A DNA stretch of 64,000 nt from an uncultured Verrucomicrobiota bacterium (GCA_937860055.1 CALMBO010000002.1:4594-68593), one strand, 5' to 3'; shown: positions 13,805 to 58,792, counted from the first letter of the stretch. The notes: generated by a model not told the origin, from the sequence alone. A program made the numbers and translations.

Positions 13805-13894
13805 TTTTTTCGCGCCGGCCATTGCGTGCCGCAGCGCCCCATGCTATCGTCATTCCGTGAACCGCAATCCGACGCCATCCCAGGAAATCCCGGC

Positions 13895-15340
13895 ATGAAG
13901 TGGCATTTCCTCGGCGGCGCCGACACCGTGACCGGTTCCAAGCACCTCCTCGAATTCGACGACTCCCGCATCCTCTTCGATTGCGGCATGTTCCAGGGCC
14001 GCCGCAAGGAATCCAACGAAATCAACAAGACCCTCGGCTTCGATCCCGCCGCCATCGATGCCATGGTCCTCTCCCACGCGCACATCGATCACTGCGGCAA
14101 CATCCCCGTCCTCGTCAAGAACGGCTACCACAAATCCATCCACGCCACCTCCGCCACCGCCGACCTCCTCCCCATCATGCTGCGCGATTCGGCCCATATC
14201 CAGGAAGCCGACGCCGCCTACCTCAACCAGAAGACCAACCGCCGCGGACAGCCCCCCGTCGTTCCCCTCTACACCCTTGCCGACGCCGAAGCCTCCCTCA
14301 AGCTCATCCGCCCCCACGACTACAAGGAACCCCTCCCCCTCCCCGGCGGGGTCGTCGTCACCCACGTCGATGCCGGCCACATCCTCGGCGCCGCGCTCGC
14401 CCTCGTCGAAATCCCCTGCAACGGCGGCGACTTCCTCCGCATCGCCCTTGTCTTCGACCTCGGCCGCCGCAACCTCCCCCTCCTCCACGACCCCTTCCAG
14501 CTCCAGGACATCGACATCCTCATCGCCGAATCCACCTATGGCGACCGCCTCCACGACAACGCCCTCAACGCCCGCGAGGAGCTCCGCGAAGCCATCATCC
14601 GCGCCCTCGGCCGCGGCGGCAAGGTCCTCATCCCCACCTTCGCCCTCGGCCGCGCCCAGGAAATCGTCTACCACCTCGTCCACCTCCGCGACCGCGGCGA
14701 AATCCCCTCCGTCCCCGTCTACGTCGACAGCCCCATGGCCCATGCCATCGCCGGCGTCTTCGAGAAGAATGCGGACTATCTCGACGAGGAATCCCACGCC
14801 CTCCGCAGCTCCGCCGGCTCCGTCGTCAAGCCCGACTGGCTCACCTTCACCGAATCCGTCGAGGAATCCAAGTCCATCACCTCCTCCAAGACCCCCTCCA
14901 TCGTCATCGCCGCCTCCGGCATGTGCGAACACGGCCGCATCCTCCACCATCTCAAGCACGGCATCGAGGACGAGAAGAACCTCATCCTCCTCGTCGGCTA
15001 CCAGGCCATGAACACCCTCGGCCGCCGGATCCAGAACGGCGAAAAAAAGGTCCGCATCTTCGGCGACGAATTCGCCCTGAAGGCCGAGGTCCAGACCCTC
15101 CATTCCTTCAGTGCCCACGCCGACCGCCTCGAGCTCTTCCGCTACGTCCGCGACGCCAAGCCGAAAAAAGTCTTCCTCGTCCACGGCGAACAGGACCAGC
15201 GCGCCTCCTTCGCCCAGCTCCTCCGCGACCAGCTCCACCTCGATGTCGAACTCCCCGCCAACGGCGACAAGGTCGATCTCTCCGCTTTCCTCCCCCCTCC
15301 GCCCGCCCCCTCTCCCTCCCCGCCTTCCTCCCAATCGTAA
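13895..15340 (+). CDS. MBL-fold beta-CASP RNA-metabolising hydrolase
   Basis: HAHIDHCG (HxHxDH), a beta-CASP region and the C-terminal HSFSAHAD..FLVHGE. ATG at 13895 (MKWHFLGGA). Confidence 0.85.
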   Translation: MKWHFLGGADTVTGSKHLLEFDDSRILFDCGMFQGRRKESNEINKTLGFDPAAIDAMVLSHAHIDHCGNIPVLVKNGYHKSIHATSATADLLPIMLRDSAHIQEADAAYLNQKTNRRGQPPVVPLYTLADAEASLKLIRPHDYKEPLPLPGGVVVTHVDAGHILGAALALVEIPCNGGDFLRIALVFDLGRRNLPLLHDPFQLQDIDILIAESTYGDRLHDNALNAREELREAIIRALGRGGKVLIPTFALGRAQEIVYHLVHLRDRGEIPSVPVYVDSPMAHAIAGVFEKNADYLDEESHALRSSAGSVVKPDWLTFTESVEESKSITSSKTPSIVIAASGMCEHGRILHHLKHGIEDEKNLILLVGYQAMNTLGRRIQNGEKKVRIFGDEFALKAEVQTLHSFSAHADRLELFRYVRDAKPKKVFLVHGEQDQRASFAQLLRDQLHLDVELPANGDKVDLSAFLPPPPAPSPSPPSSQS

Positions 15341-15398
15341 TCGTAATTCTTAATCTTAATCGCAATCGTAATTCTTAATCGTAATCCCAATCCAATCC
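15333..15398 (+). repeat. degenerate 6-7-nt tandem array (AATCGTA / ATTCTTA units)
   Basis: AATCGTAATCGTAATTCTTAATCTTAATCGCAATCGTAATTCTTAATCGTAATCCCAATCCAATCC. It spans the MBL-gene stop codon and ends 5 nt before the era ATG. Confidence 0.85.
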
Positions 15399-15402
15399 CC
15401 TC

Positions 15403-16353
15403 ATGACCACCGAATCTTCTTCCAGTCCTGCATCCCCCGCCTCCCGCGCCGGGATCGCTGCCATCGTCGGCCGCGCCAACACCGGCAAATCCTCCCTCCT
15501 CAACGCCCTCCTCGGCGAAAAGATCTCCGTCGTCTCCCCCGTCGCCCAGACCACCCGCCGCCCCGTCCGCGGCATCCACAACGAGCCCGGCCTCCAGATC
15601 GTCTTCCTCGACACCCCCGGCATCCGCCAGGCCACGCACAGCCTCAGCTCCATGCTCAACCGCACCGCCCGCGGCCTCGTCACCGGCTCCGATGTCGTCC
15701 TCCTCCTCCTCGACGCCTCCCTCCCTCCGCAGGACGAAGACCGCGGCTGGATGCAGAAGCTCTCCGCCGACGCCTCCCCCGTCTTCGCCATCCTCAACAA
15801 GACCGACCTCGGCCTCCGCCGCGCCGCCTACGAAACCGCCTGGGCCGAAGTCCTCGAGAAAAACCTCGCCCGCGATCCCTCCTTCGCTCCGCCCCCCGTC
15901 CGCTGGTTCGAGGTCTCCGCCACCACCGGCCAGGGACTCCCCGAACTCCTCGCCGCCATCCGGGAAAAAATGCCCGAATCCCCGCCCCTCTTCCCCGACG
16001 ACATGCTCACCGACGACCCCGGCCCCTTCTTCATCGCCGACGTCATCCGCGGCCAGATCAACGTCCGCCTCAAGGCCGAACTCCCCCACGCCATCGCCGT
16101 CGCCGTCGACCAGATCGAGGAAACCGACGAATCCGCCACCATCCACGCCACCATCTACGTCGAAAAGCCCTCCCAGCGCCCCATCGTCATCGGCAACCAC
16201 GCCCGCATGATCCGCGATATCCGCCTCGCCGCCCAGAAGGAGCTCGCCGCCATCTACGGCAAACCCCACAAACTCGAGCTCTGGGTCAAGGTCGAACCCA
16301 ACTGGTCCCGCAACTACTGGATGCTCAAGAAATTCGGCTACGTCGGCACCTGA
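15403..16353 (+). CDS. era: GTPase Era
   Basis: GRANTGKSSLLN (G1), DTPGI (G3), NKTD (G4) and a C-terminal KH domain. Confidence 0.95.
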   Translation: MTTESSSSPASPASRAGIAAIVGRANTGKSSLLNALLGEKISVVSPVAQTTRRPVRGIHNEPGLQIVFLDTPGIRQATHSLSSMLNRTARGLVTGSDVVLLLLDASLPPQDEDRGWMQKLSADASPVFAILNKTDLGLRRAAYETAWAEVLEKNLARDPSFAPPPVRWFEVSATTGQGLPELLAAIREKMPESPPLFPDDMLTDDPGPFFIADVIRGQINVRLKAELPHAIAVAVDQIEETDESATIHATIYVEKPSQRPIVIGNHARMIRDIRLAAQKELAAIYGKPHKLELWVKVEPNWSRNYWMLKKFGYVGT

Positions 16354-16356
16354 CGC

Positions 16357-16440
16357 GGGCTCAGGGTTCGGAGTTCAGGGTTCAGGATGGACTGCCGGAG
16401 ATCCCATGCTTTTCCTGAACCCTGACCCCTGAACCCTTTT
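16357..16440 (+). terminator. long hairpin built from inverted GGGTTCA heptad arrays plus a T-tract (putative era terminator)
   Basis: The left arm GGGCTCAGGGTTCGGAGTTCAGGGTTCAGGA pairs with the right arm TCCTGAACCCTGACCCCTGAACCC, followed by TTTTCGG. The stem is about 24 bp with a few mismatches. Confidence 0.6.
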
Positions 16441-16479
16441 CGGTTGCATTCCCGCCCCCTTCGCGGCTAACTCTTTCCC

Positions 16480-17658
16480 ATGACCACCGCCGCTTTCATC
16501 CTGCTTGCCCTCGTCATCGGCGCCGCCTTCGGCTACGCCATCGCCGCCTTCCGCGCCGCCGCGCAGATCGAACGCGCCAGGTCCGACGCCATCCGCCTCC
16601 AGGCCCAGCTCGAAACCCTCCAATCCGCCCGCGAAGAACTCGCCAACCAGTTCCAGGTCCTCGCCGCGCAAGTCCTCGACGCCCAGTCGCAGAAGTTCTC
16701 CTCCCAGCACCGCGAAGCCCTCTCCGCCCTTCTCGCCCCCCTCGGCGAGAAAATCGCCGACTTCAAGCAGAAGGTCGAAGCCGTCCATGCCGAGGACCTC
16801 CAGCAGAGCAGCGCCCTCAAGCGCCAGGTCGAGCTCCTCGCCACCCAAAGCCAGGCCGTCGGCCAGAAAGCCGACCAGCTCGCCGAAGCCCTCAAGGGCG
16901 ACAACAAGGCCGTCGGCAACTGGGGCGAACTCGTCCTCCAGCGCATCCTCGAATCCGCCGGCCTCCAGCAGGGGCGCGATTTCGACCTCCAGGTTTCCGC
17001 CGCCTCCGACGAAGGCCGCTTCCAGCCCGACGCCGTCGTCCGCCTCCCCGAAAACCGCTGCGTCATCGTCGACGCCAAGATGTCCCTCAAGGACCACGCC
17101 GACTACGCCGCCGCCGCCACCGCCGATGGACGCGCCGCCGCCCTCCGCGGCCTCGTCGCCTCCGTCGAAGGCCACATCAAGCGCCTCTCCGAAAAACGCT
17201 ACCAGGACCTCCCCGCCTTCAAGGACCGCTCCCCCGATTTCGTCCTCATGTTCATCCCCTCCGAGCCCGCATTCTCCCTCGCCCTCTCCTCCCGGCCCGC
17301 CCTCTTCGAAACCGCCGCCCGCGCCAACGTCGTCCTCGCCGGCCCCGGCGGCCTCCTCGCCGCCCTCCGCCTCGTCGCCCTCCTCTGGCGCCAGGAAAAC
17401 CAGCGCGCCTCCCTCAACGAGGTCTTCGATTCCGTCCGCAAAATCTACGAAAAATACGTCAACTTCGCCGAGGACCTCCAGGAAATCGACGACCACCTCC
17501 GCAAGGCCCAGGCCGCCTACCAGGCCGCCGTCAAAAAACTCTCCACCGGCGACGGAAATCTCGTCCGCCAGCTGGAGAAATTCCGGAAAGAGAATATCAT
17601 CAAGCCCAAGAAGCTTCCGCCTTCCGCTTTCCAGGACGCCGAGGAAAACGCCACATGA
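16480..17658 (+). CDS. rmuC: DNA recombination protein RmuC
   Basis: N-terminal TM helix, a long coiled coil, NWGELVLQRILESAGLQQGRDF and the C-terminal RmuC nuclease-like region. Confidence 0.85.
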   Translation: MTTAAFILLALVIGAAFGYAIAAFRAAAQIERARSDAIRLQAQLETLQSAREELANQFQVLAAQVLDAQSQKFSSQHREALSALLAPLGEKIADFKQKVEAVHAEDLQQSSALKRQVELLATQSQAVGQKADQLAEALKGDNKAVGNWGELVLQRILESAGLQQGRDFDLQVSAASDEGRFQPDAVVRLPENRCVIVDAKMSLKDHADYAAAATADGRAAALRGLVASVEGHIKRLSEKRYQDLPAFKDRSPDFVLMFIPSEPAFSLALSSRPALFETAARANVVLAGPGGLLAALRLVALLWRQENQRASLNEVFDSVRKIYEKYVNFAEDLQEIDDHLRKAQAAYQAAVKKLSTGDGNLVRQLEKFRKENIIKPKKLPPSAFQDAEENAT

Positions 17659-21872: not shown

Positions 21873-22072
21873 GTATCTATCAACTCCATGTACCATGGAC
21901 CGCTCTTTAACCCGCCCCCCGCAAATCGGCGATCCATGGACATGCGGAAGGTATGACGCGGAAGATATGCGAGCCGCCCGAGCCGCCGCAAGCCTATTTT
22001 CAAACTATTTTCGGCGGTTTCGCGCCTCCGATTCTGCTTTTCCTCCGCCACCCGTTGCGCCATCCTGCGGCC

Positions 22073-22906
22073 ATGACTGAAAATCCCATCCCCTCCCTCC
22101 CCCCCCGCCTCCGCCTCGACAAGCCCCTGGTCGTCTTCGACATCGAGGCCACCGGCCTCAACAAGCGCACCGACCGGATCGTCGCCCTCGCCCTCGTCCG
22201 CTTCGAACCCATCGGCACCTCCGAACAGGTCAGCTATCTCCTCAACCCCGGCATCCCCATCCCCGAGGAAGTCACCCGGATCCACGGCATCACCGATGCC
22301 GATGTCGCCGGCGCCCCCACTTTCGCCGAAATGGCCGAGACCATCGCCGACCACTTCGCCGGCGCGGACCTCGCCGGCTACAACGTCCTCGGCTTCGACA
22401 TCCAGATGCTCATGGAGGAATTCGCGCGCGCGAACCGCCCCTTCTCCCTCGAGGGCCGCCGCGTCCTCGACGCCCAGCGCATCTTCTTCCGCAACGAGCC
22501 CCGCGACCTCACCGCCGCCCTCCGCTACTACTGCGGAGACTCCCACGACAACTCCCACGACGCCCTCGGCGATGTCATCGCCACCATCCGCGTGCTCGAC
22601 GGGCAGTTCCGCAAATACGCCGGACTCCCCGCCGACATGGAGGCCCTCAACGAGTATTGCGACCCCCGCGACCCCGCCTGGGTCGACCGCACCGGCCGCC
22701 TCAAGTGGTCCAAGGGGGAGGTCGTCTTCAACTTCGGCAAGTTCCAGGGCCAATCCCTCCGCGACACCGTCGTCCACGACCCCAACTTCATCACCTGGCT
22801 CCTCCGCTCCGACTTCCCCGACGACACCAAGCAGATCGTCCGCGACGCCGTCGCCGGCAAATTCCCGGCGCCTCCTCCGCCGCCTCCCGCCGTTCCGCCC
22901 GCCTGA
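22073..22906 (+). CDS. DEDDh 3'-5' exonuclease (DnaQ-like) with C-terminal DUF3820/QSregVF_b-like domain
   Basis: VVFDIEATGL (ExoI), GYNVLGFDIQML (ExoII) and HDALGDV (ExoIII). The C-terminus reads FGKFQGQSLRD..DPNFITWLL. Confidence 0.8.
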   Translation: MTENPIPSLPPRLRLDKPLVVFDIEATGLNKRTDRIVALALVRFEPIGTSEQVSYLLNPGIPIPEEVTRIHGITDADVAGAPTFAEMAETIADHFAGADLAGYNVLGFDIQMLMEEFARANRPFSLEGRRVLDAQRIFFRNEPRDLTAALRYYCGDSHDNSHDALGDVIATIRVLDGQFRKYAGLPADMEALNEYCDPRDPAWVDRTGRLKWSKGEVVFNFGKFQGQSLRDTVVHDPNFITWLLRSDFPDDTKQIVRDAVAGKFPAPPPPPPAVPPA

Positions 22907-37229: not shown

Positions 37230-37457
37230 CTAGTTCGCGCCCCCTTTGGATTCTCCGCTTCGCAACACCTTGCGGATTTCGTAGAAAACCGCCGCCATCC
37301 CCGCCACCCATCCCGCCAGCACGCCGGCGACCGGCGAGCCGAACCACCGCCCCGCGCCGTAGCCAAGGCCGATGTAGACCGCCAAGAGGACCGGTATCGA
37401 CCAAGCCAGGCCGATCGCCCGCTGTCCGCCGGACGACGATGGAATACTATCCTTCAC
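37230..37457 (-). CDS. AtpZ/AtpI-like small membrane protein
   Basis: 75 aa with two TM helices, positioned first in the atp operon. GTG start. Confidence 0.65.
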   Translation of the reverse strand: MKDSIPSSSGGQRAIGLAWSIPVLLAVYIGLGYGAGRWFGSPVAGVLAGWVAGMAAVFYEIRKVLRSGESKGGAN

Positions 37458-37644
37458 GTCATTGAACCGTTTTGGCGCATTGTGGACTCCCCCCCCCGCT
37501 TTTCAAGGCAAATTCGGCGCCCCTCCTCCCTCGCCATCGACATCCGCTTCGCTTCTCTCCCATGCGGGAAGGCACCCCAGACTGCTCATTTTTGGCACAG
37601 GAAGAGGCCTTCATGGGATTTCCGGTCCGGAGGGATGCCTCGAA

Positions 37645-37674
37645 TAAAAACGGCCCGCCGGATTCCGGCGGGCC
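37645..37674 (-). terminator. intrinsic terminator separating the four-gene membrane operon from the atp operon
   Basis: GGCCCGCCGG-ATT-CCGGCGGGCC is a 10-bp GC stem. On the minus strand it is followed by GTTTTTATTCG. It lies 19 nt downstream of the stop at 37693. Confidence 0.75.
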
Positions 37675-37692
37675 GCGCAGGAAAGAAAGCCT

Positions 37693-38913
37693 CTACAGGT
37701 CGCCGCCGCCGCCGCCAAAGTCCTCGACGCCTTCGTCCTCCTCGCCGAAGTTGATCATTCGCTTGGCGAAGTAGAGCTTGCGGTGGACGAGGGCGATCAG
37801 ATAGGCCGCCAGCAGCGGAATGGCCACCACCACGGTCGCATAGTTCAGCAGCGACACCAGATAGTAGAGGGGATCGCCAAAATCCCCCGCGATCCGCGCC
37901 GCCCACGGCATCGTGAACACCGCTTTCGGCCCGTAGGCATTGATGTTCCACAGGATGATCGTCGCGGAAATGTAGTTGACCATCTGGTTGCCGAAGGCCG
38001 AGGACGAGGTGCTCCACTTGAACCCCAGCGAACGCCAATGGGTCCACGGCGGATAGAGGTTCGACCCCAGATGTCCCAGCTGGTCCACGAAGACATGGCT
38101 CCAGAACGCCAGCGGCCCGATGAACAGGGCAGCGATGGCAAACGGATTCAGGAACCCCAGGCCGGACAGCAGGCCGGACAGCCCGAACAGCAAAAGCCCC
38201 AGCGGCCCCAGCAGCAGCCCGAGGGTGATGCTGTGCGACCAGTGGCGGTGCCACGGGATGAAGTCGATGCGCACCCGGCCGTCCTCCTGCTTGGCGAACT
38301 GCCAGTCGGGGCCGGAGAAGATGCCGATTTCGGTGTCGGCGTAGTAGGTGTTGTTGACGTCCGCCTTGAACTTGGCGACGTGCGCGATCTCCGGCTCCGG
38401 AATGGTCCCCGGCAGGCTCGCCGATTTCTGCGCGATGTCGCGCAGGACCGGGATGGGCCCCTTTTCCGCGATGGAGCGGTAGCGCGCGGCGTCGCTGGGC
38501 AGGGTTTCGCCCCGGGCCATGACGTGGCTCATGGTCTTCAGCGGGCCGACGTAGGTGGTGACCTCCTTGCGCTCGCCGTCGATCTGGACCGTGACCGTCC
38601 GGTAGTAGTTGGTCGAGACGCGCATCACGTTGAGCTTCACGCGCACCGGCTTGCCCGTCTCGGCCGCCTCGTCGATCGCCTTGGCCACGGTCTCCGCCGC
38701 CAGCTTGGCGTCGAGGTTGTCCTCCGTCAGGTTCACGATGTGGTCGAACTTCCAGAAATAGCGCGCGAACTTGAAGTCCAGCGTGTCGGGCAGGATGCCG
38801 CAGAAACCGCCGTAGAGCATCAGGAACGACTTGTCCGCGAAGGCCGTCTGGATGGCCAGCGGAAAGCAGGACGCCGTGGCGACGCCGGTCAGGAAATGTG
38901 TAATGCCTTTCAT
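37693..38913 (-). CDS. DUF457/YdjM-like membrane-embedded metal-dependent hydrolase with about 180-aa soluble insertion
   Basis: N-terminus MKGITHFLTGVATA..ILPDTLD and a distal HRHWSHS..SHVFVDQLGHLG. Both are His/Asp blocks typical of DUF457, and they are separated by a non-hydrophobic segment. Acidic Gly-rich tail. Confidence 0.6.
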   Translation of the reverse strand: MKGITHFLTGVATASCFPLAIQTAFADKSFLMLYGGFCGILPDTLDFKFARYFWKFDHIVNLTEDNLDAKLAAETVAKAIDEAAETGKPVRVKLNVMRVSTNYYRTVTVQIDGERKEVTTYVGPLKTMSHVMARGETLPSDAARYRSIAEKGPIPVLRDIAQKSASLPGTIPEPEIAHVAKFKADVNNTYYADTEIGIFSGPDWQFAKQEDGRVRIDFIPWHRHWSHSITLGLLLGPLGLLLFGLSGLLSGLGFLNPFAIAALFIGPLAFWSHVFVDQLGHLGSNLYPPWTHWRSLGFKWSTSSSAFGNQMVNYISATIILWNINAYGPKAVFTMPWAARIAGDFGDPLYYLVSLLNYATVVVAIPLLAAYLIALVHRKLYFAKRMINFGEEDEGVEDFGGGGGDL

Positions 38914-38927
38914 GTTCTACTCCCGGG

Positions 38928-40265
38928 TTATCTGAAGCCGAACCAGCTCGCGACCTTGGCACCCACCCCCGCCATGTTCAGGCACACCGGGACCAGCAGC
39001 ACGGCCAGCAGGGGAATGCGCCGCGTGTGCCAGAAGTTCGGGACCATGCCCAGCGCCGTCGCCACGCCCATCAGCACCACCCCGCGCCAGCTCGTGACAT
39101 ACCAGACCATCGCAATCAACAAGATCATCCCACCGAGGGAAATCCAGCGGAAATCGATCTTCTGGGTGACGTTCGCGCAGAACTTGCAGTAGCGCCCCAG
39201 CAGAAGCAGCGAGGCCGCCCCGGCCACCGCGATGATGCCCGAAATCAGGAAGTACTGCTCGGCGGTCTCGGGCACGAAGAACAGGCTGATGTTGATGGCC
39301 GCGCCGCCGCGCCGCATGTAGACGTCGGGCATGAAGAACAGCACCAGCGCGCCGATGTAGTACAGCACCCGCGCCGTGCCGCCGCCGATGATGAACTGCT
39401 TCTCGCCGGACGAGGCCGTGGCGTGCGCGCTCATCAGCAGCGCCGGGCCGGGCGTCAGGCCCGGCGTCAGGCTGGAAAACATTCCGCCCACCGTCCCCGT
39501 CAGCGCCCCGCGGGCCAGGTCCTGCGGCGCCGCGTCCACGCTCCCGGCGAAATACTGCTTGGGGATCCGCGCGTGGGCGATCACCGTCATGAGCTGGCTC
39601 GGAATCGCGAAGAGGCCGATGAACACCGGCATCAGCGACTGGAACGCGTTGTCCACCGGGATGATGGTGTTGCAGAAGACGAACAGGCCCAGGATGCCCG
39701 AAACCACGAAGACGAACAGCCCCATGCCGAGCTGCACCCACGCATCGGCCAGCCGCTGGCCGGTGGTCTTCCCGACGCCATGGTCCTTGGGCCACTCGCT
39801 CATCAGGATGAACAGGCTCACCAGCCCCAGTATCCAGTAGATGTGCGGGCGGATCAGCTGCCGCAGCGTGCCGATGGCGCCCGTGACGAACGGGAACAGG
39901 CCGGAGATCATCAGCAGCGCGAACATCGAGCCGATGCCGCTGAGCATGGCCGCCTCGTAGCCGCGGCCCTCGAACAGGAACCGCTCGTGCGGCAGCATCA
40001 TGGAGCGGTAGCTGTCGTCGCACGGCTGGAAGAACTGGCTGGACACCGTGAACAGCACGGAGAATCCCACCACCAGGCCCATGATGAAGCACGTCGTGAT
40101 CAGCGGATCCATCGTCTTGAAGAGGTCGAGCGCCGCGAAGGCGATCATCATCGTGAACGCAATGACGTTGTAGATGTGGAGCCCCGGAATCAGGGAGAAG
40201 ACCGAGGCGATGGCGACGCCGGCAAGCGCCGCGAGGCAGCAAATGAGGATGATGAATATGTCCAT
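38928..40265 (-). CDS. TctA/DUF112-like polytopic permease
   Basis: 445 aa with at least 10 hydrophobic helices. Repeated SLIPGLH and SLTPGLTPGP blocks resemble the duplicated PG motifs of the TctA family. Family assignment is by eye only. Confidence 0.55.
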   Translation of the reverse strand: MDIFIILICCLAALAGVAIASVFSLIPGLHIYNVIAFTMMIAFAALDLFKTMDPLITTCFIMGLVVGFSVLFTVSSQFFQPCDDSYRSMMLPHERFLFEGRGYEAAMLSGIGSMFALLMISGLFPFVTGAIGTLRQLIRPHIYWILGLVSLFILMSEWPKDHGVGKTTGQRLADAWVQLGMGLFVFVVSGILGLFVFCNTIIPVDNAFQSLMPVFIGLFAIPSQLMTVIAHARIPKQYFAGSVDAAPQDLARGALTGTVGGMFSSLTPGLTPGPALLMSAHATASSGEKQFIIGGGTARVLYYIGALVLFFMPDVYMRRGGAAINISLFFVPETAEQYFLISGIIAVAGAASLLLLGRYCKFCANVTQKIDFRWISLGGMILLIAMVWYVTSWRGVVLMGVATALGMVPNFWHTRRIPLLAVLLVPVCLNMAGVGAKVASWFGFR

Positions 40266-40269
40266 GGCT

Positions 40270-41157
40270 TTATTCGCTTGTCCCGTCCGTCAGGACGATC
40301 ACGGCTCCCTTGTCCCAATCCCGCACCTGGATCTCCCAGTAGCCCTTCTTCTCATAGTAGATGAACTTCCCGCGCACGGAGATCTGGTCTCCCACGGCGG
40401 GCAGCTCGCCCTTGTAGCCGATCACCACCAGCTGCGGCTCCGGCTTTCCCTCGTCGCTCACGCGGAAGAACGGCAGGGCCTCGGGAACCTCCACCACTTC
40501 CAGCGGACGCGCGATGACCACCTGGTCCCGGAACTTCTCCGGATCGGCCAGCAGCTCCGCCACCGTCGCCTTGGGCGCGGGAGCGGCCGGCGCATACCGG
40601 GAGCCGGAGGCGGCGGAGGGATCGATCGGCGCCCCGCTCCCCTTCTCCAGGATCCGGATGAACTGCATGCTGCTGAGGCTCAGATGGCGATAGTTGTCCC
40701 CCGCGTACAGCGAGGCCGCCACATCGATCAAGTCGCCCCGGTTCAGGAAGCCCGGATTGGACAGGAAGTCGTTCGCGGGCTCGCCCTCCAGCCGGACCGA
40801 GATCCGGTTGTCGGAATACCGCCCGCCCCCGCCTTCGCCTTCCAGCTCGATGCGCACCTGGTGGTGGTCGTAGGCCTCCCGGACGATCTGCACGTCCGCA
40901 ACCCGGCCCTTGACCCGGACGCGCTCGAAGTTCCGGTCCGGCGTCAGCGAGGGAATCGCCGCATAGTCCGGCGCATAGCTCATCGCCAGGTAGAAATGCG
41001 CCGCCGCGATGGCCAGCAGCAGGACGATGCCCAGGGAAACGATCTTCAGGGAGATCCTCTCCACCGTCGACGCGCCGCAGAAATGGCAGACCGTGGAGTC
41101 GGGCGGATTCTCCTTGCCGCAACTGGGGCAGCAACGGGGGATTTCAGGGGTTGCCAT
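40270..41157 (-). CDS. zinc-ribbon / single-TM / tandem OB-like domain protein (second of two)
   Basis: MATPEIPRCCPSCGKENPPDSTVCHFCG (CxxC-x10-CxxC), a TM helix IVSLGIVLLLAIAAAHFYLAM, then VRVKGRVADVQIV..VRLEG and ISVRGKF beta-rich segments. ATG at 41157 overlaps the upstream gene by 14 nt. Confidence 0.6.
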   Translation of the reverse strand: MATPEIPRCCPSCGKENPPDSTVCHFCGASTVERISLKIVSLGIVLLLAIAAAHFYLAMSYAPDYAAIPSLTPDRNFERVRVKGRVADVQIVREAYDHHQVRIELEGEGGGGRYSDNRISVRLEGEPANDFLSNPGFLNRGDLIDVAASLYAGDNYRHLSLSSMQFIRILEKGSGAPIDPSAASGSRYAPAAPAPKATVAELLADPEKFRDQVVIARPLEVVEVPEALPFFRVSDEGKPEPQLVVIGYKGELPAVGDQISVRGKFIYYEKKGYWEIQVRDWDKGAVIVLTDGTSE

Positions 41158-42037
41158 TGTCGTTCCTCCATGCCGTTTCGTCGGCGGCCACCAGATCATC
41201 CGGCGCGGCCGGCGCCACTTGCCAATAGCTTTGGCTCGAACGGCTCCGGCTCCGGGCCAGGCTGCCGTAGCACGTGATGTAGTCGCCGGCCTTCAGGCCT
41301 TCGACGAACTTCACGGACGGATGGTCCGGCCCGTGCGCCGCCAGCATGCCGGCCGAGATCGAAATGGCCGTCCCCGCCCCCGCCGGATCCAGCACCCACA
41401 GGCGGCGGTCATAAGCGCCCGACTTCATGTCCTCGATGCGGCCGGTGATCTTCAGCCGCTGGGCCGCCTTCAAGCCCTTTTCCTCCGGATTCCGCAGCCA
41501 GCCGATCGGCGTGGCGGCTTCCGGCTTCTCCCGCCGGATCTGGAGGTCGTCCGCCGAACCCAGGATGATGAAATGCCGCCGGGCCTTGTACTGGTAGCTG
41601 CCGTCCACGACAACCTCGTCGCCGAAGCCGGGGATCTTGCCCGCCTTCTGCACTTCGTCGCTGACGTCGTCGTAGGCCCGGATCCGGATCGTGTCCGTCC
41701 CGTCGTCCACCTCGAATTCCAGGCTGCCGCCACTGGCCTCCTGGTCCGAGGAGTGGAAACGGATCTCGTCGCTGACGCGGCCGGTCAACCGGACCTGCGC
41801 ATAGTTGGACTTGCGGGTGAGGTCCTGGATCTGGACCGGCTGCACGCCGTATTTCTTGCCCATGGAACTGAGCAGGAACAAGCCCAGCACCGCCAGGATC
41901 GGCATGCTGTACTTGAAGATCCGGACCTGCCACCTCTTGGGATTCCAGTGCCGGCAGAAAGGGCACCGCTCCCAGGAGCCGATGAACCGGCCGCAGGCGG
42001 AACATTCTGTTTCTCGGCGGTTCTGGCTGTAAACCAC
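41144..42037 (-). CDS. zinc-ribbon / single-TM / tandem OB-like domain protein (first of two)
   Basis: (V)VYSQNRRETECSACGRFIGSWERCPFCRH (CxxC-x9-CxxC), a TM helix MPILAVLGLFLLSS, then VRLTGRVSDEI..LEFEVDDGTDTIRIRAY..GDEVVVDGSY and LKITGRIEDM. GTG start. Confidence 0.6.
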   Translation of the reverse strand: MVYSQNRRETECSACGRFIGSWERCPFCRHWNPKRWQVRIFKYSMPILAVLGLFLLSSMGKKYGVQPVQIQDLTRKSNYAQVRLTGRVSDEIRFHSSDQEASGGSLEFEVDDGTDTIRIRAYDDVSDEVQKAGKIPGFGDEVVVDGSYQYKARRHFIILGSADDLQIRREKPEAATPIGWLRNPEEKGLKAAQRLKITGRIEDMKSGAYDRRLWVLDPAGAGTAISISAGMLAAHGPDHPSVKFVEGLKAGDYITCYGSLARSRSRSSQSYWQVAPAAPDDLVAADETAWRNDNGNP

Positions 42038-42297
42038 CTTTTCGACTTCAGGGTTCAGTTGAATGGCGTCACCTCTGGGAATGTTATGGTTTCGTAAAAC
42101 GTCCGCCGCCGGACAATGCCCTCAACGCCGGGCCTGTCCGGACACCGCAACACATCGGGCAAACGGTAATGAACTCTTATATTTGAAAACAAGCGCAATC
42201 GACAGGATCCGGAAAACCGCTTTACCCCGGAACCCGCCACCCCCGCCGGCCGGTTTTTGTGGTGGAGAAATTCCGCCGCGATTGATACATTGCCGAC

Positions 42298-43020
42298 ATG
42301 AACCAAGCCGACGTGGTCAGGCGATACCTCCATGAGCCCCGCGATGTGGACTTCCGCGACACCGGATTCCCCCTGGTCACGATCTCCCGCGAGACGGGAA
42401 CGGGGGCCCATGCCCTGGGCCGCCATCTCATCATGCGGCTGGCGGAATATGCCGATCCCGACCTGCGCTCCGGCTGGGACCTCTTCGACCAGAAGCTGTG
42501 CGCCTTGATCGCCCAGAACAAAAGCCTCGACGCGGACTACGACACCCTGGTGAATGAAAAATACCGCGCGGGGGGAAGCCTCCACCGCATGCTCTACGAG
42601 ATGTTGATCGGCACGCCGCAGGAATACCGCATCCAGAAGAAGATCGAAGAAGTCGTCCGCCTCCTGGCCCGCCTGGGCAAGGTGGTGATCATCGGGCGCG
42701 GCGGATTCCAGCTCGCCCGCCACATGCCCGGCGCCATCCATCTCCGCCTGGTGGCTCCCATGGAATACCGCGTGAAAGCCGTGATGGAACACGACGGCCT
42801 TCCCGAAGAAGAAGCCGCCCGCAAGATCCGGAAGACCGACGAGGAACGCACCCGCTTCCTGAAAAGCCACCACAACTGCGATATCCGCGACCCCGCGAAT
42901 TTCGACATCGTGTGGAACATGGACCGCTTCCGGGTTCCCGAGATCGTCCACGCCACCGCCGAACTGGTCCGCCTGCGCCTGCAGCATCTGCGGGAAACCA
43001 AGGCGATCCACGCCTCTTAG
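42298..43020 (+). CDS. cytidylate kinase-like family protein (Cytidylate_kin2)
   Basis: PLVTISRETGTGAHALGRHL and VIIGRGG.. with a C-terminal helical region. Confidence 0.7.
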   Translation: MNQADVVRRYLHEPRDVDFRDTGFPLVTISRETGTGAHALGRHLIMRLAEYADPDLRSGWDLFDQKLCALIAQNKSLDADYDTLVNEKYRAGGSLHRMLYEMLIGTPQEYRIQKKIEEVVRLLARLGKVVIIGRGGFQLARHMPGAIHLRLVAPMEYRVKAVMEHDGLPEEEAARKIRKTDEERTRFLKSHHNCDIRDPANFDIVWNMDRFRVPEIVHATAELVRLRLQHLRETKAIHAS

Positions 43021-57572: not shown

Positions 57573-57947
57573 ATGAAATCCATCCAGACCGAAAAGGCCC
57601 CTCCCGCTATCGGGCCCTATTCCCAGGCCGTCTCGCACCACGGGCTTCTCTTCATCTCCGGCCAGCTCGGCCTCGATCCCGCTTCCGGCGCGCTCGCGGA
57701 AGGCATCGAGGCCCAGACCCGCCGCGCCCTGCAGAATCTCGCCGCCATCCTCGCCGCCGCCGGACTCGCTCCCGCCCATGTCCTCAAGGCCACCGTCTAC
57801 GTGGCCGACATGGACGACTTCGCCCTCGTCAACCGGCTCTATGCCGAAGTCTTCGCGCCGCCCTTCCCCGCGCGCGAAGTCGTCCAGGCCGCCCGCCTGC
57901 CCAAGAACGCCCTCGTCGAAATCTCCGCCATCGCCGCCACGCCATGA
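57573..57947 (+). CDS. ridA: RidA/YjgF family reactive-intermediate deaminase
   Basis: APPAIGPYSQAV..FISGQLGLDP..AREVVQAARLPKNALVEI. Confidence 0.92.
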   Translation: MKSIQTEKAPPAIGPYSQAVSHHGLLFISGQLGLDPASGALAEGIEAQTRRALQNLAAILAAAGLAPAHVLKATVYVADMDDFALVNRLYAEVFAPPFPAREVVQAARLPKNALVEISAIAATP

Positions 57948-58792
57948 TCATCATCGAACCCCACATCCACATGCTTTCCCGCACGACGGACGACTACACG
58001 GCGATGTACAACGCCGGCATCCGCTGCGTCGTCGAACCGTCCTTCTGGCAAGGCTCCAACCGCCGACACGCCGGCACGTTCTTCGATTACTTCTCCCTCT
58101 CGCTCGACTTCGAGCATACCCGCGCCCTCCGCTACGGCATCGACCACTATTCCTGCATCTCCGTCAATCCCAAGGAGGCGGAGGACATCTCCCTCGCCCG
58201 CGAAACCCTCGCCGGCATCGGCGCCTATCTCGAGCATCCCCGCTGCGTCGCCGTCGGCGAAATCGGCTTCAACCGCATCACCCCGAACGAAGAAGAGGTC
58301 TTCCAGCGCCAGCTCGAAATGGCCAAGGCGCACGCGCTCCCCGTCCTCGTCCACACCCCCCACGACACGCCCGAAGTCAGCAAGAGAAAGGGCACCGCCC
58401 GCATCCTCGACATCCTCCGCGAGTTCGCCTACGACCCCTCCCTCATCGTCGTGGACCACAACACCGAGGAAACCATGCCCCTGACCCGCAAGACCGACTA
58501 CTGGGCCGGCCTCACCGTCTATCCCTATTCCAAGCTCAACCCCCGCCGCGTCGTCGACATCCTCCAGCGCTGGGGCCTCGACCGCGTCCTCGTCAATTCC
58601 TCCGCCGACTGGGGCGTCTCCGATCCCTGCTCGCTTCCCAAGACCGCCGCCTTCATGGCCGACCAGGGATTCACCAAGGCCCAGATCCGCAAGATCATGC
58701 ACGACAATCCGCTGGCCTTCTATTCGCAGACCCCCAAGTTCAAACCCCAGCTGGACCTCCCCTGCATTGACCCCGCCACCTACCAGCGATGA
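57944..58792 (+). CDS. TatD-related metal-dependent hydrolase (EboB-like)
   Basis: IIEPHIHMLSRTTDDY, VAVGEIGF, LPVLVHTPH, VVDHNTEET, NSSADWGVSDP. ATGA overlap with ridA. Confidence 0.75.
   Translation: MIIIEPHIHMLSRTTDDYTAMYNAGIRCVVEPSFWQGSNRRHAGTFFDYFSLSLDFEHTRALRYGIDHYSCISVNPKEAEDISLARETLAGIGAYLEHPRCVAVGEIGFNRITPNEEEVFQRQLEMAKAHALPVLVHTPHDTPEVSKRKGTARILDILREFAYDPSLIVVDHNTEETMPLTRKTDYWAGLTVYPYSKLNPRRVVDILQRWGLDRVLVNSSADWGVSDPCSLPKTAAFMADQGFTKAQIRKIMHDNPLAFYSQTPKFKPQLDLPCIDPATYQR

Follow-up and report, generated by a model that had tools for sequence, protein, structure and literature searches.

The closest described relatives of the genes reported here come from methanogenic archaea. In Methanococcus maripaludis JJ, each of the adjacent genes MMJJ_13020 and MMJJ_13030 is essential for natural transformation, as established by transposon hits and by clean, complemented deletions (Fonseca et al. 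2023, PMC10133366). The former encodes an OB-fold protein with one transmembrane (TM) helix and the latter a TctA family protein with 11 TM helices. Deletion of the gene for a TctA-like protein, SAMN04488571_104187, abolishes transformation in Methanoculleus thermophilus too, and the authors proposed the TctA-like protein as the missing DNA transporter of archaea (PMC10133366). The screen in M. maripaludis also yielded a MinD-like ATPase, the prepilin peptidase EppA, and pilins (PMC10133366). Searching the literature, we found no follow-up to Fonseca 2023 and no paper that links TctA with YdjM or DUF112 with OB folds. Here, we analyzed a four-gene operon, g1 to g4, on the minus strand of a 64,000-nucleotide stretch of DNA (the window) from an uncultured Verrucomicrobiota bacterium (GCA_937860055.1 CALMBO010000002.1:4594-68593). 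It amounts to a bacterial variant, with four components, of a system so far documented solely through genetics in archaea. We favor, with a probability of roughly 55%, the interpretation that it is a module for the uptake of nucleic acid, probably DNA, and homologous to the archaeal pair. The substrate is likely a nucleic acid because the archaeal OB and TctA-like proteins are essential for natural transformation.

The four open reading frames (ORFs) are tightly packed. As a mechanical ORF with a GTG start, g1 (41144-42037, minus strand, as are all four) encodes 297 amino acids (aa) and would extend to 42064 if an ATT start were used. It is followed by g2 (40270-41157), which encodes 295 aa from the Met common to its homologues, its mechanical ORF reaching 41199, and by g3 (38928-40265; 445 aa) and g4 (37693-38913; 406 aa). 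Recomputing the junctions gave an overlap of 14 nt between g1 and g2, a gap of 4 nt between g2 and g3, and a gap of 14 nt between g3 and g4, the same values as in a preliminary description of this locus made from the sequence. The anatomy proposed there is also considered right, with the ribbons placed in the cytoplasm and the OB domains outside, next to a permease and a His/Asp protein within the membrane.

The 445-aa polytopic protein encoded by g3 had been likened to TctA/DUF112 permeases, and it matches Pfam TctA (PF01970) over its full length (E value, 5.4e-24; 85 bits versus a cut-off of 28.9; profile positions 2 to 422 of 423). About 11 hydrophobic stretches were recognized by hydropathy, and homologue lengths are nearly constant at 439 to 446 aa. 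The g3 clade is distinct, with an invariant EWPK loop and an F-x-GLFA motif (alignment A1). A profile of this clade matched 1822 of 1.84 billion representative proteins, which suggests that TctA-like proteins linked to OB genes make up a small group, distant from most canonical TctA. No canonical TctA was retrieved when the Methanoculleus TctA-like protein was used in tblastn against plasmids, and a profile search of the g3 alignment against PDB sequences returned no relative. Neither a TctB nor a TctC gene was present near the operon in the window or in Pfam-annotated related loci, in line with the earlier remark that these partners are missing. A canonical tripartite tricarboxylate transporter (TTT) system was therefore rejected for this operon.

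Both g1 and g2 had been described as proteins with a zinc ribbon, one TM helix, and two OB-like domains, and this architecture was recovered. As read from the translations, g1 has the Cys spacing CxxC-x9-CxxC and g2 the spacing CxxC-x10-CxxC, in agreement with those given before. The AlphaFold2 model of g1, with a mean predicted local distance difference test (pLDDT) score of 87.5, contains an N-terminal four-Cys ribbon, a TM helix at residues 36 to 63 (GTG numbering), two OB barrels, and, at the C terminus, a short conserved helix. The N-terminal zinc ribbon is kept in 20 homologues. In Pfam, g1 has a weak tRNA_anti-codon OB match, whereas g2 matches Zn_Ribbon_1 at 1.7e-5 and has weak OB matches in addition. 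A sub-threshold match of g2 to DUF4131, the N-terminal OB domain of ComEC, was recorded as well (18.3 bits versus a cut-off of 31.6; E value, 0.002), and a related OB protein of 702 aa likewise has faint DUF4131 matches. g2 shares the architecture of g1, of which it is a distant paralogue (BLASTP E value, 3e-5), and its synteny is kept in loci L001-L013.

A Foldseek search of the g1 model against the PDB gave 281 matches at E values of 0.001 or less, and the best 50 of these are almost all tandem-OB proteins that bind single-stranded DNA (ssDNA) or double-stranded DNA (dsDNA). The top matches, with E values from 4e-10 to 1e-7, include Teb1-AB (3.6e-10), RPA70 DBD-A/B with ssDNA (1.8e-9), POT1, HIN-200 domains on dsDNA, and Deinococcus/Thermus SSB. 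Their TM-scores are low, about 0.3, because the mutual orientation of the two barrels differs; g1 therefore resembles the architecture rather than one specific protein. By its model, g1 has a tandem-OB fold, and its OB domains and those of g2 may bind DNA. The identities with CcmE, NfeD, and BOF (YgiW) that had been raised as a check on the preliminary description do not apply: CcmE scored 16.8 bits versus a cut-off of 24.6, NfeD and BOF gave no Pfam match, and the fold matches are DNA-binding tandem-OB proteins (RPA, POT1, Teb1, SSB, HIN). The zinc ribbons are probably cytoplasmic and the OB domains outside the membrane, in the periplasm, since a K/R-rich stretch, PKRWQVRIFK, lies just before the g1 helix (read from the sequence, not computed).

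The last gene, g4, encodes a protein that matches Pfam YdjM (PF04307) in two separate stretches (E value, 3.2e-8; 33.7 bits versus a cut-off of 29). Its AlphaFold2 model (pLDDT, 87.9; predicted TM-score, 0.84) shows six long helices with a soluble alpha/beta insert between the second and the third. A YdjM/DUF457 domain split by a soluble insert had been claimed, and both the domain and the split stand; the insert measures approximately 166 aa (residues ~54 to 219, after PF04307 profile position 53) rather than about 180 aa. Across 42 homologues, D43, D46, H222, H227, H273, and D277 are invariant and H6 is nearly so, a His/Asp pattern that fits a metal site. All 120 g4 homologues among the matches listed are 312 to 410 aa long. 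Foldseek against the PDB gave nothing below an E value of 0.28 for g4, no structural match for the insert was found in the PDB fold search, and a profile search of the g4 alignment found no relative among PDB sequences. A literature match for "DUF457" proved to be DUF4579 in Cap1 and was discarded as irrelevant.

A motif-based scan identified g3 relatives in 357 GTDB species genomes, of which the best 80, plus five other loci, were analyzed. Linkage was counted by profile searches over all ORFs in these loci, with denominators restricted to loci with enough flank. An OB gene lay directly upstream, on the same strand, of the TctA-like gene in 67 of 75 loci. A YdjM gene was found downstream of it in 46 of 68, and both partners were present in 42 of 61. 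The genes are thus syntenic in other genomes; a lack of such synteny had been named in the preliminary description as grounds for refuting it. Relatives of g3 are present in Lentisphaerota, Verrucomicrobiota, Kiritimatiellota, Chloroflexota (many of them Anaerolineae), Wallbacteria, Myxococcota, Planctomycetota, and Cloacimonadota, as well as in Thermoplasmatota and Promethearchaeota (Asgard). The order OB, TctA-like, YdjM recurs in Lentisphaerota, Kiritimatiellota, Chloroflexota, Wallbacteria, Myxococcota, Planctomycetota, Muiribacteriota, Asgard archaea, and Thermoplasmatota. Since the same order is found across bacterial and archaeal phyla, the genes cluster far beyond chance. The linkage was also seen when starting from g4 (YdjM) homologues. 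On one Muiribacteriota contig, the three genes have overlapping stop and start codons; one Anaerolineae-like contig carries YdjM alone.

Fusions of the partners were found as well. Three OB domains and the permease are joined in a single ORF of 852 to 857 aa (P0265; L027:1403-3976, a Cloacimonadota metagenome-assembled genome [MAG]), and in P0336 a zinc ribbon and TM helix are fused to the TctA-like protein. Conserved synteny and fusions together argue that the proteins work together physically. Separately, three TctA-like proteins (P0384, P0400, and P0411) carry an insert of ~100 aa between the permease halves, with a faint OB-like match. A Lentisphaerae MAG (JAIOPI010000027; L091:1655-7945) contains two modules back to back on opposite strands, one with an OB protein of 287 aa and the other with an OB protein of 174 aa that has a single OB domain, each followed by TctA-like and YdjM genes.

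The association with OB proteins extends past the g3 clade. On two cyanobacterial plasmids, a gene for a TM+OB protein adjoins a TctA-like gene, with a NERD nuclease-related gene following in one of them, and two archaeal contigs with a shorter (~400-aa) TctA-like type have TM+OB genes upstream. The OB proteins of these plasmids and contigs match the g1/g2 profiles at 1e-7 to 1e-19 (small search space), and the cyanobacterial ones pass the Pfam threshold for tRNA_anti-codon at 1e-10 to 2e-11. The OB pairing is older than the g3 clade or the shorter TctA-like clade.

Neighboring genes were clustered across the related loci, and representatives were annotated. A PLDc_2 protein of 1000 to 1300 aa is encoded in 9 to 10 loci, Asgard included, either right after YdjM or before OB. 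It is secreted-looking, with two phospholipase D (PLD) domains and, in most of those scanned, LTD (Lamin-tail) domains. Its best NCBIfam matches, all sub-threshold, are the DISARM nuclease DrmC, the Helicobacter pylori nuclease NucT, and cardiolipin synthases, and a profile search of the LTD-PLD protein against PDB sequences found no relative. In 5 Chloroflexota loci, a divergent gene upstream encodes ComM/YifB (TIGR00368; 633 bits). Between TctA-like and YdjM, 5 loci (L017, L031, L065, L082, and L083) have genes for DNA methyltransferases of the N6_N4 and Dam types, and a DnaB-like helicase with a zinc ribbon is encoded just upstream of OB in 4 loci. A Thermococci contig (L093:904-7236) carries an S-layer-like gene, archaeal MinD, a gene for a 116-aa membrane protein, an A24 prepilin peptidase gene, a 55-aa pilin-like gene (MRSSGQASAEYMVL...), TM+OB, and TctA-like, in part the same gene classes that the M. 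maripaludis screen returned (MinD-like ATPase, EppA, and pilins; PMC10133366). Taken together, the neighbors point to DNA rather than to carboxylates or lipids, with none of them universal and several confined to a lineage. Two further associations were noted: a beta-propeller protein of the PD40/TolB-like type (~300 aa) is encoded between OB and TctA-like in Anaerolineae-type loci (L017, e.g., L017:5036-5953; L031; L082), and in L017 the permease gene is followed by one for an 873-aa GEVED/hemolysin-type Ca-binding protein.

To reach the archaeal genes, genomic sequence was rebuilt from the deletion primers of Fonseca 2023. The upstream flank primer for M. thermophilus has an exact 21-nt match in Methanoculleus palmolei (L087, CP137641), and a 13-nt junction-primer match was seen by eye directly after the stop codon of a 406-aa TctA-like ORF in that species. 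Because of these two matches, the ORF was taken to be orthologous, by position, to the M. thermophilus gene. Within 3 mismatches, L087 has no match to either of the two junction primers or to the downstream-flank primer ML1-28. g3 aligns with the M. palmolei protein over its full length at 27% identity (E value, 1e-25), and the g3-clade profile matches it at 4e-39. In M. palmolei, an ORF resembling TnpB of an IS200/IS605-type element (by eye; L087:1253-2821) is inserted between the genes for uroporphyrinogen-III synthase and the TctA-like protein, setting the latter gene apart from its upstream region, and no OB gene is adjacent there. For a 24-mer derived from the M. maripaludis JJ primers, the sole match was a chance one, within a glycosyltransferase locus of Omnitrophota. 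Among the primer-encoded peptides, to which the comparison was confined, FSGILGI from MMJJ resembles VSGILGL in g3. As judged from these alignments, the link between g3 and the experimentally tested archaeal gene is one of family-level homology, with g3 in a separate clade.

The operon shares with the archaeal pair an OB gene for a single-TM protein that lies directly upstream, on the same strand, of a gene for a TctA-like permease with ~11 TM helices, and the absence of TctB and TctC. It differs in having a Lentisphaerota-like bacterial host, two OB paralogues, each with a zinc ribbon and two OB barrels, a permease of the EWPK-loop clade, and a conserved third component of the YdjM type. Compared with TctABC, g3 is a PF01970 member, yet it has about 11 rather than 12 TM helices, and its OB partners and neighbors are different. 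g4 resembles YdjM/YbcI (DUF457), LexA-regulated inner-membrane proteins of Escherichia coli and Staphylococcus aureus, in its PF04307 match and conserved His/Asp residues. Unlike these compact proteins (the Pfam model has 176 positions), it is about twice the usual length, because of the soluble insert, and is linked to OB and TctA-like genes. A connection with DNA metabolism is hinted at by the family's SOS regulation (PMC11442139).

A likeness to ComEC in functional logic is also apparent, in that OB domains outside the membrane, a proposed polytopic conduit, and a proposed metal-dependent hydrolase are spread over separate proteins of the operon. We know of no ComEC in archaea. In ComEC, the hydrolase (beta-lactamase-like) domain has been proposed to degrade the non-transported strand (PMC6299819). 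The proposed conduit of the operon has the TctA fold, however, and its proposed hydrolase the YdjM fold, and neither the Competence domain (PF03772) nor a metallo-beta-lactamase domain gave a Pfam match in g1 to g4 at an E value of 1 or less. The operon is an analogue of ComEC/ComEA, not a homologue or family member.

Based on these observations, we hypothesized that g1 and g2, each anchored by one helix, would capture DNA in the periplasm via their tandem OB domains and feed it to g3, which would act as the conduit. Transport through g3 is presumably driven by an ion gradient, as its family consists of ion-coupled secondary transporters. The His/Asp metal-hydrolase-like g4 would process the substrate at the membrane and might degrade the non-transported strand, as proposed for the corresponding ComEC domain. 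The cytoplasmic zinc ribbons could receive the incoming strand or dock cytoplasmic partners. In other lineages, the core may recruit a surface PLD-type protein, DNA methyltransferases, the ComM helicase, or pilus genes. More tentatively, and at a likelihood that we put clearly below that of an uptake role for the operon itself, the module could represent a ComEC-independent DNA translocase common to archaea, including Asgard, and many mostly uncultured bacterial phyla, with tandem-OB receptors, a TctA-fold channel, and a YdjM-fold intramembrane metallohydrolase serving as the strand-processing nuclease.

The preliminary description had suggested capture, translocation, and processing of an envelope or extracellular substrate. 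The general logic for an external substrate was retained, with nucleic acid as the likely substrate in place of an unspecified envelope component. It had also stated that no described system combines these parts. This does not hold for the core, which has been described in M. maripaludis (PMC10133366), while the YdjM partner, the paired zinc-ribbon OB proteins, and the bacterial distribution appear to be undescribed.

Several points weigh against assigning DNA uptake to the operon. OB folds can also bind oligosaccharides and proteins, and the TTT family is known for small anions. The identity of g3 to the archaeal protein is only 27%, g3 belongs to a clade of its own, and orthology to the M. 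maripaludis genes is putative. YdjM is absent from about a third of the related loci, where unrelated genes are found downstream, and the PLD neighbors match cardiolipin synthases about as weakly as nucleases. The 64-kb window contains no pilus, DprA, ComEA, or other competence genes. The archaeal TctA-like protein is a channel by proposal only (PMC10133366), and YdjM proteins, known just to be LexA regulated, are guessed to be phospholipases (PMC11442139). In addition, every surveyed Chloroflexi strain had a ComEC-like protein (PMC6299819), so that the module is no simple replacement for ComEC, at least there.

When the possible functions are ranked, DNA uptake comes first, a nutritional or export role in nucleic acid handling comes next, and small-solute and envelope-lipid roles are less likely. 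The second of these, which we regard as unlikely, holds that the proteins handle nucleic acid without transformation, either importing DNA, RNA, or oligonucleotides as a source of phosphorus, nitrogen, or carbon, or exporting DNA, beside ComEC. Such a role would account for the coexistence with ComEC-like proteins in Chloroflexi (PMC6299819) and for a housekeeping context that lacks competence genes, and the nuclease-like partners would suit degradation for nutrition. The archaeal mutants, however, lose transformation, which needs intact incoming information, and in some lineages the adjoining genes encode the recombination helicase ComM or DNA methyltransferases.

Close to what the preliminary description had in mind is a role in the envelope or in lipid handling, with an oligosaccharide or glycolipid bound by the OB domains and flipped or imported by the permease, and with YdjM and, in other lineages, the PLD protein as enzymes of the phospholipase type that act on a substrate in the membrane or envelope. 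We consider it improbable. The ability of OB folds to bind oligosaccharides, as a matter of general knowledge, and the weak matches of the PLD neighbors to cardiolipin synthases as well as to nucleases are compatible with it. YdjM proteins have also been annotated as possible phospholipases (PMC11442139). Nevertheless, all Pfam OB matches are to the nucleic-acid-binding tRNA_anti-codon family (above threshold only in the cyanobacterial OB proteins), the strongest fold matches are ssDNA and dsDNA binders, the ComM, DnaB-like, DNA methyltransferase, NERD, and pilus neighbors lack a lipid logic, and the archaeal genetics point to DNA. Similarly improbable is a non-canonical TTT-type transporter for a small solute, such as a carboxylate, in which the OB proteins replace TctC/TctB and YdjM is an accessory or unrelated hydrolase: although g3 exceeds the gathering threshold of Pfam TctA along its entire length, the only biochemically characterized TctA proteins move tricarboxylates (summarized in PMC10133366), and the window context is one of ordinary metabolism, no Pfam-annotated related locus has TctB or TctC, the OB fold matches are DNA binders and not solute-binding proteins, the archaeal relatives have a transformation phenotype, the recurrent neighbors are nuclease-like proteins, ComM, DNA methyltransferases, and pilus genes, and the rarity of g3-clade matches (1822 of 1.84 billion) suggests remoteness from the bulk of TctA.

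The start of g1 was considered separately. It is probably an ATT codon at 42064, 27 nt (9 codons) upstream of the GTG at 42037. In 10 relatives, AT(T/C) is invariant in the corresponding block (window 42035-42076, minus strand), and the 27 nt that follow show wobble-like, third-position variation and encode I-Q/K-L-N/D-P-E-V/I-E-K. AGGTGA is located 4 nt upstream of the ATT, and the Shine-Dalgarno-like sequence AGAGGTGA with the conserved ATT (42062-42076, minus strand) forms the candidate non-canonical start. No canonical in-frame start is present between the upstream stop and the GTG at 42037. Initiation at AUU or AUC is rare and can, as infC illustrates, serve regulation. The public gene call of g1 (P0241) has 253 aa from Met45 and so lacks the conserved zinc ribbon together with part of the TM helix; entries for the g1 family in databases may be systematically truncated at the N terminus.

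Transcription of the operon appears to end at an intrinsic terminator on the minus strand (37676-37650), with a stem of 12 bp, of which 11 are G-C pairs, and a 3-nt loop followed by TTTTTATT. It lies 17 nt past the g4 stop codon, before the atp operon. A strong GC hairpin with a T-run had been reported here and is indeed present; its size and place differ from the 10 bp at 37645-37674 then given, and the terminator is stronger than had been stated. On the other side, a divergent cytidylate-kinase-like gene starts at 42298. The flanks of the operon comprise the atp genes, this cytidylate-kinase-like gene, a phosphotransferase system EIIA gene, and a Na/H exchanger gene. Alignment A4 contains no conserved non-coding motif upstream of g1 beyond the Shine-Dalgarno/start block, and a search of 37300-42500 against Rfam with permissive thresholds found no riboswitch or leader. 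No credible sigma-70 promoter was found in the scan, in which the sole site near g1 falls within the g1 coding sequence. PADLOC gave no defense-system match for g1 to g4, and NCBIfam added no annotation for the operon proteins.

The 64-kb window is otherwise occupied by housekeeping genes, including those for DnaG, HrpB, Era, RmuC, the atp products, a Na/H exchanger, and alanyl-tRNA synthetase. Genes for nucleic acid enzymes lie 15 to 25 kb away from the operon (13826-17658 and 21953-22906), namely, a beta-CASP/RMMBL metallo-beta-lactamase nuclease, RmuC, and an RNase T/ExoX-like exonuclease, and a TatD gene is found at 57944-58792. These are probably unrelated housekeeping genes. Over the window (1-64000), the GC skew of the plus strand is negative in every 2-kb bin (cumulative value, -6.6) and weakest (-0.01 to -0.13) over 30 to 44 kb, where genes lie on the minus strand. 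No switch in GC skew, and hence no origin or terminus, was seen within the window.

The prior lead on archaeal DNA import was a matter of genetics only, concerning an OB protein and a TctA-like protein in two methanogens. The present analysis extends this core to a module that is conserved in bacteria and archaea, with at least 357 GTDB species genomes carrying it. It also adds the occasional fusion of the partners, a third conserved partner of the YdjM type, and the company of genes for nuclease-like proteins, ComM, DNA methyltransferases, and pili. What had been the phenotype of a single organism has thereby become a candidate machine of several defined components, one that lends itself to testing in bacteria. 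To our knowledge, archaeal-type TctA/DUF112 and YdjM/DUF457 are large families without a solved structure or biochemistry, and the module would give them their first functional context. If the proposal of a ComEC-independent translocase is true, it would at one stroke supply a mechanism for the TctA fold, for the YdjM/DUF457 family, and for the importer of DNA in archaea. If the module is a second route of bacterial DNA uptake, it would change the genome-based prediction of competence and, hence, of the potential for horizontal gene transfer.

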